The notes beneath the pieces are model-generated. The model was not told where the DNA came from, did no database searches, and was given only the letters and a program-made list of their open reading frames with translations. The translations under genes were made by a program, and so were the position numbers. DNA of 55,996 nt from Dehalococcoidales bacterium (lineage in GTDB: Bacteria > Chloroflexota > Dehalococcoidia > Dehalococcoidales > BS750m-G39): NCBI GenBank assembly GCA_023129255.1, contig JAGMCH010000044.1, positions 1-55,996 of the forward strand, given 5' to 3'. Shown here in pieces: positions 7,890-10,249 of this stretch. Numbering within the stretch: position 1 is the first letter of the stretch; each line of letters starts with the position of its first letter.

Positions 7890-8393
7890 ATGCATCCGCT
7901 GGCGGCACTAGCCAAGATAACAGTAGAGACCTTTATCACGGAAGGTAAAGTCTTTCAGCTGCAAGAGCTTACCCCCGAGATGGGGGGGAGGGCTGGCGTC
8001 TTTGTTTCCATTCACAAGGGTGGCGAACTAAGAGGCTGCATCGGCACCTTTGAGCCCCAGAAGGCTAATGTGGCTGAGGAGGTTATCGCCAATGCCATTA
8101 GCTCGGCAACGAGAGACCCCCGCTTTCTGCGCATCCGCCCCGATGAGCTTGAAGACCTTAAATACAGCGTGGACGTCCTCACCACCCCCCAGCCAATTCC
8201 CAGCAAAGACCATCTAGACCCCAAGAGGTATGGGGTTATCGTGGAGGCGGGTTTCAAGAAGGGCTTGCTCCTCCCCGACCTTGAGGGAGTGGATACGGTG
8301 GACTATCAGATTGACATCTGCCGCCAGAAGGCGGGCATATTGCCCGACGAGCCAGTAAGGCTATACAGATTTGAGGTGAGGAGGTATAAATAA
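7890..8393 (+). CDS. amrA: AmmeMemoRadiSam system protein A (AMMECR1 domain)
   Basis: GVFVSIHKGGELRGCIGTFEP and RDPRF motifs of the AMMECR1 domain. Its last 15 codons are duplicated at 10202..10249. Confidence 0.85.
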   Translation: MHPLAALAKITVETFITEGKVFQLQELTPEMGGRAGVFVSIHKGGELRGCIGTFEPQKANVAEEVIANAISSATRDPRFLRIRPDELEDLKYSVDVLTTPQPIPSKDHLDPKRYGVIVEAGFKKGLLLPDLEGVDTVDYQIDICRQKAGILPDEPVRLYRFEVRRYK

Positions 8394-8396
8394 AGG
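8349..8396 (+). repeat. 48-bp direct repeat, copy 1 (functional 3' end of amrA)
   Basis: gagccagtaaggctatacagatttgaggtgaggaggtataaataaagg. 45/48 identical to 10202..10249. Confidence 0.9.
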
Positions 8397-8402
8397 AGTG
8401 GG

Positions 8403-9689
8403 ATGATAGAGAAAATACAAAACTTCAAGGGAGAGAGAATGATTCAAAAAGCCGAGAGATTAGATACTTCCTGGGCGTATAACACGAAGGATTTACCCAA
8501 AGACAGAGAACTAAGACTCCTAGATAATGCCCAGTTCATTTACGAATTGGCGTTAGCTCAGCTTGAGCTCCAATCTCTTGGAGCGAGGTTTGAATTAACT
8601 AATGGACTTAGAGAATTTAAGTTGTTAGAAATAGAGGATGAGAAGGCCCTCAGAAGAAGATTGGCATATTTCAAGTTTGTTAAAGGCAAGTATACAGACT
8701 ACTTTCAAATCATACGGAAGAATAGAACCAGGTCGGTAAACCAATACCTTACTCATTGGATCTATCCTTATAAGGGGAAATTCCATCCCCAAATGATTAG
8801 AGGGCTTCTCAATATTATCGGGCTTGAAGAAGGTGACACTGTTCTTGACCCGTTCATTGGCAGCGGCACAACAGCGGTTGAAGCACAATTATTGGGAATA
8901 AATTGTATCGGTATTGATGTTTCTCCTCTTTGTGTTCTTCAGAGTAAGGTAAAAACAGAGTCTATAGATGTGTTACCACAAATCATGAAATTGAAAGAGG
9001 AAATAACAAATAGGTTAAGACCTTCTTTGTCTAATCTCAAAGGAGAAACTCTTGATGATATGATTAACTTAATTCCTGAGAAGAAGACAGAAAACTTCTA
9101 TAAAATGGCAAAGCTTGTTGCTATAAGCGATAACGCTAGAAGGCGAAGGGAATTCTCCAACGCATTCTTGAAGAATTTAGAACTGATGATTTTCTCAGTT
9201 AGCGATTATGTCCAAATAGTTGAGAAACTTAAGCTAAGATTAGGCATCATGGATATAAAGACGGGAGACTCAAGAGCATTACCCTTAGATGATGAAAGCG
9301 TAGACGGCATAATCACTTCCCCTCCATATTCAATTGCCTTAGATTATGTTTCCAATGACGCTCATGCTTTAAAAGAACTAGGCTACGGTATTTCAGAGAT
9401 TAGAGAGGAATTTATCGGGGTGAGAGGAAAGGGTCAAGCAAGAGTTGACCTATATAACAAAGACATGAGAATCAGCTTGCAAGAAATGTTCAGAGTCCTT
9501 AAACCACAAAAATATGCCGTCATAGTTATTGGAAATGCAACGTATCTGGGGCAGGAAGTAAAGACAGTTGAATTCACTATAGACCACGCAGAGAAGACTG
9601 GTTTTAAGCTAATCAAGAATATAGATAAGATTATCTTTGGGCTCTACAATGTGATGCGAAAGGAAAATATATTGATTTTTATGAAATGA
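8403..9689 (+). CDS. SAM-dependent DNA amino-methyltransferase (SPPY motif, probably N4-cytosine)
   Basis: YPYKGKFHPQM....VLDPFIGSGTTAVEAQLLGINCIGIDVSP (motif X/I/II block) lies at aa 121-175. DGIITSPPYS (motif IV) is at aa 301-310. The coding sequence is visibly AT-richer than its neighbours. A small nuclease-like gene follows. Confidence 0.75.
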   Translation: MIEKIQNFKGERMIQKAERLDTSWAYNTKDLPKDRELRLLDNAQFIYELALAQLELQSLGARFELTNGLREFKLLEIEDEKALRRRLAYFKFVKGKYTDYFQIIRKNRTRSVNQYLTHWIYPYKGKFHPQMIRGLLNIIGLEEGDTVLDPFIGSGTTAVEAQLLGINCIGIDVSPLCVLQSKVKTESIDVLPQIMKLKEEITNRLRPSLSNLKGETLDDMINLIPEKKTENFYKMAKLVAISDNARRRREFSNAFLKNLELMIFSVSDYVQIVEKLKLRLGIMDIKTGDSRALPLDDESVDGIITSPPYSIALDYVSNDAHALKELGYGISEIREEFIGVRGKGQARVDLYNKDMRISLQEMFRVLKPQKYAVIVIGNATYLGQEVKTVEFTIDHAEKTGFKLIKNIDKIIFGLYNVMRKENILIFMK

Positions 9690-9714
9690 ACCTGAATACA
9701 ACAAGGAGAATCAA

Positions 9715-10203
9715 ATGAGTAAAGAACCAAACGGAAGTCTCATGTGGGACATAGAAGAGATTGCGCGAGCGCTGAAAATAAGCGGAAAAGATGTTCGAGA
9801 GTATTTTACAGACGGTCGTCGAGTATCATTTATTTTAGAGAGACGGATTGCCAGAGAAATTTTAAAGGGGACTCTAGCTCCCACCGAAGGGGCTGGTTTT
9901 GATTTAATAGACCCCGAAGGTGGCAAATGGGAAGTTCGTAGTATTTCAAAAGTGGGCGTATATTTTTGTCCTAGCTATATGGTTGGTTCGGGCCGGCATT
10001 TCGAAGAAGCCGGTTTCATAAGCAAACTCTCAGAGATTAGGGGATACATTATTGCTGATATAGAATCATTCCCTAATATACCATTTTGGATTATCACAGC
10101 AGACCAGGTCCGAAATTGGTGGAATGAGCGAAAGCTAGGAACAACAAGCAAAATATCACGTGAGCGGGCGTTGGAACTCCTCCGCAAGTCAAAGTCCCAA
10201 TGA
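9715..10203 (+). CDS. putative type II restriction endonuclease (PvuII-like PD-(D/E)xK core)
   Basis: 162 aa. GFDLIDPEGGKWEVRSIS aligns without gaps to my recollection of the R.PvuII catalytic segment GNDAVDNAGQEYELKSIN. AAGGAG precedes the ATG. The gene is paired with the methyltransferase. Confidence 0.55.
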   Translation: MSKEPNGSLMWDIEEIARALKISGKDVREYFTDGRRVSFILERRIAREILKGTLAPTEGAGFDLIDPEGGKWEVRSISKVGVYFCPSYMVGSGRHFEEAGFISKLSEIRGYIIADIESFPNIPFWIITADQVRNWWNERKLGTTSKISRERALELLRKSKSQ

Positions 10204-10249
10204 GCCAGTAAGGCTCTACCGGTTTGAGGTGAGGAGGTATAAATAAAGG
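10202..10249 (+). repeat. 48-bp direct repeat, copy 2 (orphan relic of the amrA 3' end)
   Basis: gagccagtaaggctctaccggtttgaggtgaggaggtataaataaagg still reads EPVRLYRFEVRRYK-stop but has no upstream ORF. The TGA of the nuclease ORF straddles its left edge. Confidence 0.9.

Follow-up and report, generated by a model that had tools for sequence, protein, structure and literature searches.

Insertion with long target duplication has been described for restriction-modification (R-M) genes (Nobusato et al., 2000, as cited in Furuta, Abe and Kobayashi, 2010, NAR 38:2428, PMC2853133). The criteria published for such events are an insert of less than 20 kb that holds both the R and the M gene and no mobility gene, a unique target duplication of more than 30 bp, and an insert-free relative with a single target to which both repeats align (PMC2853133). 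The cases in Haemophilus influenzae have 46-bp repeats, identical at 44 of 46 positions, that overlap gene ends (PMC2853133). Other described systems resemble the locus reported here in part. The core defence hot spot cDHS1 of Pseudomonas aeruginosa has a median length of 26 kb (Johnson et al., 2023, PMC10250203), and its authors suggest that such regions could transfer by homologous recombination via conserved flanks (PMC10250203). The ssrA islands of Dehalococcoides insert at a defined point, have a repeat of constant 20-bp length, and bring an integration module of six genes that includes the serine recombinase DsiB (McMurdie et al., 2011, PMC3146451).

The window analysed here is the whole stretch of 55,996 nucleotides from a Dehalococcoidales bacterium. 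As the first-pass annotation had proposed, an R-M insert is located directly behind the stop codon of amrA, and the 3' end of amrA is duplicated on both sides of it. The features of the locus are the following.

6022-7086, + strand: amrS, radical SAM protein (Pfam Radical_SAM)
7088-7888, + strand: amrB, Memo protein (Pfam Memo)
7890..8393, + strand: amrA, intact, AMMECR1 / AmmeMemoRadiSam system protein A, 167 aa (Pfam AMMECR1, E 1e-44; NCBIfam TIGR04335 above cut-off)
8343..8396, + strand: repeat copy 1, the last 16 amrA codons, the stop codon and 3 further nt; secure core 8349-8396
8397..10197, + strand: low-GC inserted cassette, putative PvuII-like Type II R-M pair (GC profile; left junction homology)
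8403..9689, + strand: DNA amino-methyltransferase (MTase), N6/N4 family (Pfam N6_N4_Mtase, E 8e-19)
9715..10203, + strand: restriction endonuclease candidate, 162 aa, predicted PvuII-like fold (AF2 model, Foldseek)
10196..10249, + strand: repeat copy 2, orphan amrA 3' end followed by the native spacer (CC microhomology join to the nuclease gene)
10250..10337, + strand: native amrA-rarA spacer (homologous spacers in loci L077, L058, L013, L145 and L097)
10262-10274, + strand: GGGGCGAAGCCCC hairpin in the native spacer
10289-10316, + strand: 28-nt palindrome in the native spacer (terminator-like scan)
10338..11702, + strand: rarA/mgsA, AAA+ recombination factor (Pfam MgsA_C, AAA_assoc_2, AAA; synteny)

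The genes amrS and amrB are the upstream genes of the AmmeMemoRadiSam operon, and all downstream genes are on the same strand. The order amrS-amrB-amrA is kept in 80 Dehalococcoidales loci, and synteny identifies rarA as the conserved right border of the site. The insert is 1.8 kb long and contains two genes only. Its GC content (39.4% for 8397-10201) is lower than that of amrS-amrA (52.5%) and of rarA (55.5%). The first-pass reading of the insert as an R-M pair is borne out by an N6_N4_Mtase gene with a partner of predicted PvuII fold. The MTase, whose start in public gene calls is 8439 (416 aa), has motif I (DPFIGSGTT) before TSPPY, contains FxGxG and SPPY motifs, and gives weak PDB sequence matches to N4-cytosine DNA MTases. 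The 162-aa ORF gave no sequence match in Pfam, NCBIfam or PDB, and its identity as a nuclease candidate is taken from fold comparison. Its AlphaFold model (pLDDT 86.6) has PvuII endonuclease as the best Foldseek match (E 1e-4, probability 1.0), and the top 11 matches are all PvuII structures (TM about 0.5). Homologues of this candidate number 1307 across phyla, and the M and R genes are conserved as a pair in many genomes. The pair is consistent with a Type IIP R-M system of the PvuII kind, in which a small candidate of predicted PvuII fold (PD-(D/E)XK class) stands beside an amino-methyltransferase.

The 48-bp repeat is real: positions 8349-8396 and 10202-10249 are identical at 45 of 48 sites, and they are the sole two matches at up to 3 mismatches in the 56-kb window (0 matches in 100 shuffles). 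A repeat finder stretches the pair to 54 nt (8343-8396 and 10196-10249). The extra 6 nt, which give 49/54 identity from 8343 and 10196, are probably homologous as well. Copy 1 in the amrA frame reads P-D-E-P-V-R-L-Y-R-F-E-V-R-R-Y-K-stop, and copy 2 reads P-N-E-P-...-stop. The earlier statement that the copies differ at synonymous sites only is correct for the 48 nt (3 of 3 differences), and one D/N replacement has to be added if the extra 6 nt are homologous. L019, L096/L097 and L158 do have CCCAATGAG as an actual amrA allele. The repeat does not belong to a dispersed-repeat family, since it has two copies in the window and its motif is confined to amrA ends and amrA-rarA gaps in 0.7 Mb of related loci. 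Copy 1 contains a 20-nt conserved tail, TTTGAGGTGAGGAGGTATAA (8370-8389), that holds the Shine-Dalgarno-like GAGGTGA and AGGAGGT. Neither an attC-like nor another structure was detected in the repeat, whose folding is no stronger than that of shuffled sequence (z -0.85 to -1.6). Third-codon-position conservation is modestly raised in the amrA tail (0.61 vs 0.50 for the remainder of amrA; sixth among 160 windows). An additional DNA-level constraint on the tail was considered and rejected, as this rise is only modest.

On the left, the join shows homology to that between amrA and the MTase gene in L036 and L096-L099. At the right junction, the nuclease homologues of relatives terminate in ...AAAGTCC TGA, whereas the window gene ends in ...AAAGTCC CAA TGA. 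The window nuclease is without its native stop and therefore has a new stop within amrA-derived sequence; by 3'-end alignment, both the final codon CAA and the TGA derive from the amrA repeat. The nuclease stop had been described as built across a border at 10201|10202. The TGA does come from the repeat, and the border is to be moved to 10196-10198, where the join has a CC microhomology. Copy 2 and the subsequent spacer look like an empty site. The order predicted on first pass for an empty site is found in L077, which reads from the amrA tail through an AGGG..GGGGCGAAACCC hairpin spacer to rarA, and empty or near-empty amrA-rarA sites occur in 8 other species. Exact AmrA and RarA protein look-ups returned cassette-bearing contigs only, with no cassette-free genome of the same species, and the window-specific tail allele had no match in the metagenome scan. 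The empty site of the window would thus be a reconstruction from species that are 75-88% identical rather than a same-species case. The hairpin unit of the spacer is part of a small dispersed repeat, of which the window has copies at 29492 and 33037. The spacer module of about 105 nt (conserved core about 55 nt) has no Rfam match and shows one compensatory base pair only. A promoter and terminator scan found no convincing own promoter ahead of the cassette and was otherwise uninformative.

The Helicobacter precedent cited in the first-pass annotation has a real published counterpart in insertion with long target duplication. The window has R and M inside the insert (R by predicted fold), an insert of 1.8 kb, no mobility gene, and a duplication of 48-54 bp with two copies in 56 kb. 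As in the published R-M cases, a unique target of more than 30 bp is directly duplicated where no mobility gene is present, the insert's GC content is below that of its surroundings, and there is an overlap between the repeats and the 3' end of the upstream gene. Each published case is one event seen in a strain pair, whereas here the same target is repeatedly duplicated order-wide, with up to 4 copies per locus. In addition, non-R-M cassettes (nitroreductase, SRPBCC, toxin-antitoxin) are found here, and a same-species empty site is absent. Since non-R-M cassettes are involved, an R-M-specific activity is not required.

The window event is one instance at an order-wide landing pad between amrA and rarA, and this wider picture is new. 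Where one contig carries both amrA and rarA (loci of 53 Dehalococcoidales species), 18-5531 nt separate the two genes. The gap ORFs are mostly on the operon strand (81 of 96), and GC content is lower in the gap than in the flanks (0.44 vs 0.55) in 41 of 41 loci. Their cargo includes Type I, II and IIG R-M, GmrSD, AIPR, an AbiEii-like ATPase, Schlafen, SIR2, DndB and ParE/RHH; nitroreductase, glyoxalase and SRPBCC proteins are further cargo. Like cDHS1, the gap is variable, low in GC and rich in defence genes, lies between two conserved core genes, and belongs to no obvious mobile element class. Unlike cDHS1, it spans 0-5.5 kb, its genes are co-oriented in one operon context, and duplicated ends of the left flanking gene mark the cassette boundaries; a text search of the cDHS1 paper found no mention of direct repeats (PMC10250203).

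Additional amrA tails are concentrated in these gaps. A position weight matrix (PWM) with a threshold of more than 12 bits detected 15 extra tail copies in 122 kb of gap, two mis-placed amrA ends only on the same strand elsewhere (580 kb), and 1 match on the opposite strand (702 kb). In the combined set of about 150 loci, 45 have extra copies, 60 in all, and about 20-30% of loci have extra amrA 3' ends at cassette boundaries. The copies lie 1-82 nt past a cassette ORF and often directly ahead of the next ORF. The left edge of their amrA homology varies from 0 to more than 150 nt. The right edge is usually the stop codon, and the in-frame stop is retained in 50 of the 60 copies. Some tail copies are foreign, judging by their alleles. 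The copy in L038 matches the tails of other species at 24/24 positions vs 18/24 for its own, that in L023 matches the L035 tail at 23/24 vs 19/24 for its own, and a 120-nt fragment in L034 is nearer to the amrA of other species. A head-to-tail junction, 'rarA nt 1-21 | TTTGAGGTGAAGAGG', occurs in L160 (twice), L220, L023 and L123 (twice). The 7-nt TTTGAGG is common to the amrA tail and to rarA codons 8-10, and rarA nt 22-28 are often TTTGAGG itself.

The R-M pair of the window has been found in other settings. Its M gene (82-86% aa) occupies the same site without a second amrA tail in at least 5 other lineages, 3 of which retain the R gene (73-91% aa), and the repeat is not obligatory for the cassette. 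In the unrelated genome L107, a second copy (141 nt, 96%) of the upstream gene's 3' end flanks the R-M pair and ends exactly at the stop codon of that gene. Within one community, the window and L005/L012 have the R-M pair and copy 2 in common and differ downstream, and L005 and L102 have a downstream Mrr-type cassette in common and differ upstream. The exact stretch shared at the tail switch point is 15 nt, which is too short for a k=31 assembly chimera.

We consider it reasonably probable that the cassette was inserted by host recombination driven by homology and microhomology, with no dedicated integrase, and that the repeat arose as a long duplication of its target, the amrA 3' end. DNA of a related genome, in which the cassette already stood directly behind amrA, would have entered the cell with a piece of the donor amrA end. 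The highly conserved amrA tail would have served as the site of integration by host homologous recombination. At the other end, the last nuclease codon and amrA would have been linked by an illegitimate event at a 2-nt microhomology, CC. Two variants can be envisaged: a circularised fragment of amrA tail and cassette could have integrated by one crossover in the tail, or homology-facilitated illegitimate recombination could have taken place. Either way, amrA would be left intact and an orphan second amrA end would come to lie before the native spacer. Variable left edges and stop-codon right edges are expected from this process, because the right edge would be the end of donor/recipient homology and the left edge an illegitimate join. 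The same process, together with unequal exchange at TTTGAGG, would repeatedly have produced arrays of co-oriented cassettes parted by tail copies, and these tail copies would then offer short homologies for more cassette swapping. In many loci, the tail copies may provide the Shine-Dalgarno sequence of the next gene.

Homology-facilitated illegitimate recombination was reportedly described by de Vries and Wackernagel in 2002 for natural transformation, in experiments with Acinetobacter, Pseudomonas stutzeri and pneumococcus. It shares with the process proposed here the combination of one homologous anchor and a microhomology join without a site-specific enzyme. It differs in that target duplication as its product, and its action in Dehalococcoidales, are suggested only by the present locus. 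Identity of 15-20 nt is short for RecA-mediated recombination, which counts against the host-recombination route. The position of the first insertion exactly behind the amrA stop is left unexplained by homology alone.

A trans-acting recombinase is an unlikely alternative, in which the last 20 or so nucleotides of amrA would be an attachment site, and integrase-less, cis-mobilisable cassettes would be inserted and excised by a recombinase encoded elsewhere. Such cassettes would resemble the module-less tandem ssrA islands of Dehalococcoides or CIMEs at the streptococcal fda 3' end. The ssrA islands belong to the same bacterial class, form tandem units between which the 3' end of a conserved single-copy gene is directly repeated, and include some units without integration genes. 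Arrays of co-oriented units parted by a repeated gene 3' end are also what is seen here, and the window itself has a tRNA-Met gene whose 3' end is duplicated around a small insert. About half of the extra copies have a nearly equal extent of about 20-24 nt, and 31 of 60 start within 5 nt of one position. The shared extent could fit a fixed attachment core, and the conserved core of about 17-20 nt is similar to the fixed 20-bp ssrA repeat. Many of these copies, however, come from one inherited unit or from a rarA-microhomology junction, and the TTTGAGG microhomology with rarA accounts for several copies with a left edge of 0. Unlike the ssrA islands, the amrA site has a protein-coding target, units of single genes or pairs, and repeats whose left edges run from 0 to more than 150 nt. 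The same R-M pair occurs at the site without a second copy in other lineages, and in another genome the same R-M family has next to it a 141-nt duplication from the end of an altogether different gene.

The window insert was correctly noted to be without an integrase or transposase. No recombinase is present among the 25 commonest Pfam families listed for 137 gap ORFs, a summary that a single-copy recombinase in a small ORF could escape. The 40 larger gap ORFs scanned singly (80 loci) include no integrase, serine recombinase or transposase. This search covered gap ORFs, and genes elsewhere in the genomes could still encode a recombinase. A site-specific island would have an integrase in the element or a neighbouring unit and a fixed repeat extent and crossover. 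The gap ORFs examined and the tail copies show neither, and the variable repeat edges and the lack of a recombinase argue against the site-specific integrase implied by the tRNA-island analogy drawn on first pass. Integron arrays and CALINs consist of co-oriented, mostly promoterless single-gene cassettes in series with a recurring short separator, and they depend on IntI and attC. The cargo is similar here (toxin-antitoxin pairs, glyoxalase-type and other small enzymes). However, no IntI was found in the gap ORFs, and the separator is a gene-end copy with variable edges and without an attC-like imperfect palindrome or hairpin, which speaks against a trans-acting recombinase as well.

An origin in situ is more improbable still. 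The R-M pair would have been resident first, and a later microhomology-mediated duplication and deletion would have put an amrA end behind the nuclease; differences would have arisen afterwards, selection allowing only synonymous changes in the live copy. Copy 2 is closest to the resident copy 1 (49/54; best foreign tail 48/54), the lineage-specific states GTAAGG and AAATAAAGG are common to both copies, and repeat-less versions of the cassette are known at the site. If, however, the stretch between amrA -27 and the end of the nuclease gene were duplicated in tandem, the whole R-M pair would be copied too, and a second, precise deletion would be required. The 5 differences in 54 nt also stand against 0 over 2.85 kb between two sibling strains. 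Moreover, other lineages, R-M carriers included, are known to have the AAT codon of copy 2 as an amrA allele, and extra copies at other loci are clearly foreign. An excess of synonymous differences is expected in situ if one copy alone is under selection. Synonymous-only divergence, which had been taken to mean that the copies diverged in two functional lineages, is thus no proof of this, as a comparable excess results from duplication in situ if selection then acts on the live copy; in the 141-nt analogue of L107, 3 differences are synonymous and 2 non-synonymous.

Which of the two copies would have been imported was also considered. The first-pass annotation had proposed that copy 1 was imported and copy 2 native. 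At the three diagnostic sites (n=3), L039 and L024 have the copy-1 state and L013 has it at 2/3, while L023 has the copy-2 state and L048 has it at 2/3. These five closest relatives carry mixed states and give no decision on polarity. Given this split, the AT-rich, insert-like states of copy 1 count as ordinary amrA alleles. A left crossover within amrA was sought by sliding-window identity against 12 relatives, which gave noise and no breakpoint.

An assembly artefact or meaningless chance repeat is scarcely credible: as a metagenome scaffold, the window might have been misassembled at repeats, but contigs from at least 5 other, independent samples cover amrA, the cassette, both repeat copies and the intergenic region at 99.9-100% identity, the shuffles gave 0 matches, and the architecture recurs in dozens of unrelated assemblies.

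Insertion by host recombination with duplication of the amrA end, as proposed here, bears on the question of how defence genes build up at fixed chromosomal hot spots without mobile-element genes. The locus preserves recombination scars in the form of variable-length duplicated gene ends, foreign alleles, head-to-tail junctions and microhomologies, so that the mechanism may be readable from sequence and testable in population metagenomes. Long target duplication, described so far as isolated R-M events, would be extended to a process that recurs throughout the order and also takes in non-R-M cassettes, which speaks against an R-M-specific cause. It is possible, if on balance doubtful, that the amrA end and the rarA start form an integrase-less, integron-like platform for gene capture that is run on host recombination. 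Promoterless cassettes with defence or accessory genes would be captured behind amrA, transcribed by read-through from amrSBA and translated from tail-borne Shine-Dalgarno sequences, and they would be shuffled within and between species via the tails and TTTGAGG. The Dehalococcoidales are uncultured or difficult to manipulate, and for them the locus points to a tolerated insertion site whose cassettes may be expressed by read-through.

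The R-M pair of the window sits in a previously undescribed cassette hot spot of Dehalococcoidales, the interval between amrA and rarA, of which no published mention was found in the open-access literature searched. The features of this locus are as follows (forward-strand coordinates).

7890-8393: amrA, AMMECR1 family, AmmeMemoRadiSam protein A, downstream of amrS and amrB
8349-8396: copy 1 of the repeat, at the amrA 3' end
8403-9689: DNA amino-methyltransferase, N6/N4 family (public gene calls place the start at 8439)
9715-10203: candidate nuclease with a PvuII-like predicted fold
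10202-10249: copy 2 of the repeat, an orphan amrA 3' end
10338-11702: rarA/mgsA

The product of 9715-10203 has no sequence match in Pfam, NCBIfam or PDB; its family comprises over 1300 proteins from many phyla (65-91% identity). The first eleven Foldseek matches of its AlphaFold model (pLDDT 86.6) were PvuII endonuclease structures (E 1e-4, probability 1.0, TM about 0.5). Because this model matches PvuII and a methyltransferase adjoins it, the insert is a predicted PvuII-like Type II R-M pair, which bears out the first-pass annotation. The repeat described there was also confirmed: the two copies are 45/48 identical, nothing else in the 56-kb window matches at three mismatches or fewer, and no match was found in 100 shuffles. 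Both read ...E-P-V-R-L-Y-R-F-E-V-R-R-Y-K-stop in the amrA frame and, as had been claimed, all three differences are synonymous; ungapped extension to 54 nt (8343-8396 and 10196-10249, 49/54) adds six bases that would bring one D/N difference (GAC/AAT). Other lineages have CCCAATGAG as a genuine allele of amrA, and no significant hairpin was found on folding the repeat. The segment between the copies has 39.4% GC, as against 52.5% in amrS-amrA and 55.5% in rarA. An assembly artefact was ruled out, since both copies are spanned by contigs of at least five other samples at 99.9-100% identity; the window itself is included in ENA scaffold ZHAN22-2_SAMN18200504_METAG-scaffold_4.

A scan of one genome per species yielded 80 Dehalococcoidales loci (amrA 66-80% amino-acid identity), in 53 of which rarA lies downstream on the same contig and co-oriented. 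In these 53, the gap between amrA stop and rarA start measures 18 to 5531 nt; it is at most 160 nt in eight and more than 600 nt in 41. Gap GC was below flank GC in 41/41 cases (0.44 vs 0.55), and 81 of 96 gap ORFs are oriented as amrA and rarA. By Pfam, the cargo is rich in defence genes, including Type I, Type II (EcoO109I-like) and Type IIG R-M systems, GmrSD, AIPR, AbiEii-like ATPase, Schlafen/AlbA_2, SIR2 and DndB/GIY-YIG proteins. Cas4-like DUF2779, RmuC and seven ParE/RHH pairs were also found, as were small enzymes (ten nitroreductases, glyoxalases, SRPBCC proteins, methyltransferases). Neither the 25 most frequent Pfam families in 137 gap ORFs nor 40 larger gap ORFs scanned individually included an integrase, serine recombinase or transposase. 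The commonest first unit behind amrA, absent from the window and usually followed by a copy of the amrA tail, is a conserved element of ~55 nt (GGGAAACAATTC, about 16 nt, GATTTGTTTTT, 3 nt, GTTATGTTAA), seen in the loci L013 (6553-6611), L015 (6532-6588), L038 (2886-2942), L102 (13-71) and 13 more. Since three loci also have it elsewhere on the opposite strand, this element is dispersed; Rfam gave no match to it, two sequences carry a compensatory change at one stem pair, and it may serve as promoter or terminator.

Conservation is high in the tail of amrA, its final 20 nt (consensus TTTGAGGTGAAGAGGTATAA). With up to four mismatches, 726 kb gave 90 matches, every one of them on the strand of amrA. 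Position-weight scanning located 15 extra copies, each within a gap (122 kb), only two mis-placed amrA ends elsewhere on the same strand (580 kb), and one weak match on the opposite strand (702 kb). A second, independent sample of 120 metagenome contigs, selected by a 17-nt core pattern and so biased towards multi-copy contigs, carried amrA on 83, of which 25 had 2-4 co-oriented tail copies. In the combined set, this biased sample included, 45 of about 150 loci hold extra copies, 60 in all. Extra copies lie 1-82 nt 3' of a cassette ORF stop, often immediately 5' of the next start codon, where GAGGTGA and AGAGGT could act as Shine-Dalgarno of the next gene; empty-site loci have none. Tail copies also stand behind non-R-M cassettes: nitroreductase (L035, L058, L181, L158), SRPBCC (L086, L053), DUF5714 (L034, L158) and toxin-antitoxin pairs (L080, L074). 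In some loci, such as L181 (oriented, 11468-13810) and L211 (116-926), a long second amrA fragment is followed by a second nitroreductase gene. The fragments measure more than 45 nt in L181 and at least 150 nt in L211 (codons 125-167, 88% amino-acid identity), and look like whole blocks of amrA end plus cassette, imported or tandem-duplicated.

The methyltransferase of the window (82-86% amino-acid identity) was found immediately downstream of amrA in five or more other lineages, with varying partners.

Partners of the methyltransferase in other amrA loci (extra amrA tail: none in any)
L096-L099 and L125: nuclease at 91%
L100 and L101: nuclease at 91% and a 154-aa ORF; in L100 a glyoxalase cassette is next
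L210: frameshifted nuclease at 73-82%
L036: different 222-aa R gene
L143: no nuclease homologue detected

Without a second tail in at least five other lineages, the repeat is not a fixed part of the cassette. In the unrelated genome L107 (JGI Ga0137716_10002377; nuclease 74% identical), a 141-nt direct repeat (2201-2341 and 4601-4741, 96%) brackets the R-M pair. It is formed by the 3'-terminal 141 nt of the upstream 1087-aa gene, ending exactly at the stop codon, and its five differences are three synonymous and two not. The arrangement recurs in L106, where the left copy has a 52-nt deletion. No repeat surrounds the pair in L104 (between dapF and dapA) or L108.

The first-pass annotation had taken copy 1 as imported and copy 2 as native. 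This was not borne out in the closest relatives (L013, L048, L039, L023 and L024; amrB and rarA 84-88% identical at the nucleotide level). Of these, L039 and L024 have the copy-1 state (CTA..AGA) at the three diagnostic sites and L013 two of its three states; L023 has the copy-2 state (CTC..CGG) and L048 two of three. Both are therefore ordinary amrA alleles, and polarity is undecidable. The left part of copy 2 leans weakly towards a donor origin, because its AAT codon, also seen in L019 and L158, occurs in L096/L097, which carry the same R-M pair. Pooling the window with L107, 7/10 nucleotide differences are synonymous, a larger share than if both copies had decayed neutrally. Two functional alleles, as had been proposed, would fit this, and so would in-situ duplication with selection on the live copy only. 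The left crossover sought within amrA was not found, no recombination breakpoint being located there. Compared with the window, the sibling strain L002 has 28 differences in 3260-8138 and none in 8139-10990 (2.85 kb), a stretch covering the amrA end, cassette, copy 2, spacer and rarA start. This is compatible with recent shared import of the block, a weak test as the differences are clustered, and the pattern suggests patchy recombination.

At the left junction, the cassette begins directly 3' of the amrA stop, and the sequence at this point, TAAAGGAGTGGGATGATAGAGAAAATACAAAAC, is homologous to the amrA-methyltransferase junction of other species with the same M gene. At the right end, homologous nuclease genes read ...AAAGTCC TGA and that of the window ...AAAGTCC CAA TGA GCC..., so that its native stop was lost and the last codon and new stop were taken from amrA-like sequence. 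The proposed junction exactly at 10201/10202 did not hold up: judged by the relatives' 3' ends, the join is at 10196-10198, with CC microhomology. The sequence 3' of copy 2, GGATAGATTGAAGGGGCGAAGCCCCTCTTACC..., is the native amrA-rarA spacer, with homologues in L058, L013, L145 and L097. As L077, an empty site, has an amrA tail followed directly by a hairpin spacer of this kind and by rarA, copy 2 with its spacer looks like an unoccupied site; the empty site expected in related genomes was thus found, but in other species only. A small dispersed repeat around the hairpin GGGGCGAAGCCCC lies at 10262-10281, 29492-29511 (minus strand) and 33037-33056 (minus strand); the copy at 10262 is part of this spacer and is conserved there in other species.

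Integration of DNA carrying a donor amrA end by host homologous and microhomology-mediated recombination is the best-supported mechanism, and rather likely the correct one. Among the 60 extra copies, amrA homology 5' of the core extends 0-5 nt in 31, 6-15 in 13, 16-30 in six, 31-60 in eight and more than 60 in two, and the in-frame stop is kept in 50. Such variable left edges with a right edge at the stop would arise because donor-recipient homology ends on the right, where the donor's cassette begins, and the left edge would be an illegitimate join. A fixed attachment site would not predict this, and a trans-acting site-specific recombinase is the less likely explanation, with a small chance. 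Several tail copies are foreign. The L038 copy matches the tails of four other species at 24/24 and its own at 18/24, that of L023 the distinctive L035 tail at 23/24 (own 19/24) and that of L015 the L048 tail at 24/24 (own 21/24); a 120-nt amrA fragment in L034 is nearer other species' amrA than the resident gene. Cassettes therefore move together with part of the donor's amrA end. An in-situ origin, with which the synonymous excess is compatible, is less likely than host recombination and quite improbable; routes outside those considered have a small chance.

The tail is also a switch point within the window's own community. Contigs of two other sequencing runs (L005/L012) are identical to the window through the R-M pair and copy 2, then divergent. 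Beyond copy 2, L005 runs into a second cassette, in which a 429-aa Mrr-domain protein accompanies a truncated methylase-like ORF; L102 has this cassette behind a different left side, a ~105-nt conserved spacer module (~55-nt core) and then a tail copy. The alternative partners have no exact stretch longer than 15 nt in common, which would not suffice for an assembly chimera at k=31. This second cassette (L005:1960-2328, L102:117-2110, L103:5001-7227), carried behind copy 2 by sibling strains of the same community, encodes a 172-aa methylase-like protein, a 429-aa Mrr restriction-endonuclease-domain protein and a 64-aa ORF; next to dnaE in a quite different genome there is a copy with 83% identity, without an amrA tail. 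A direct fusion of rarA nt 1-21 to TTTGAGGTGAAGAGG... occurs in L160 (twice), L220, L023 and L123 (twice). Nucleotides 22-28 of rarA are TTTGAGG in many species (e.g., L015, L020, L051, L077; codons F-E-E), and codons 8-10, often TTTGAGGA, share a 7-nt direct microhomology with the amrA tail TTTGAGGTGA, on both sides of the hot spot; the window reads TTTCAG at 10359-10364. Junctions at this microhomology were seen in four loci, and the fusions are as expected for unequal exchange or circularisation at the 7 nt that naturally bracket the hot spot.

Duplicated gene ends around small inserts are seen a second time in the window. The tRNA-Met gene (12099-12173) and a 40-nt copy of its own 3' end (38/40) at 12791-12830, 655 nt downstream, bracket a low-GC segment with no integrase and one minus-strand 133-aa ORF (12280-12681), which has no Pfam match and looks like a membrane protein. 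Close comparisons for the amrA-rarA hot spot are the Dehalococcoides ssrA islands, which unlike it have a fixed 20-bp repeat and a DsiB recombinase module (PMC3146451), and the core defence hot spots of P. aeruginosa. The latter have core-gene flanks and no mobile-element signature, and transfer by homologous recombination through the conserved flanks has been suggested (PMC10250203). The Helicobacter precedent cited in the first-pass annotation is real: the term 'insertion with long target duplication' was defined by an insert below 20 kb that holds R and M genes, a duplication above 30 bp and the lack of genes of mobile elements (Furuta, Abe and Kobayashi, 2010; PMC2853133). The window fits this definition, except for the empty site, which is seen in other species only. 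Among the listed cases are two insertions in H. influenzae with 46-bp repeats, 44/46 identical, that overlap the 3' ends of genes; the authors did not settle on a mechanism and suspected a property tied to R-M systems, for instance double-strand breakage (PMC2853133). Beyond those cases, the same target is here duplicated repeatedly across a whole order and in arrays, and tail copies also stand behind non-R-M cassettes, which argues for a general recombination route and not one specific to R-M systems.
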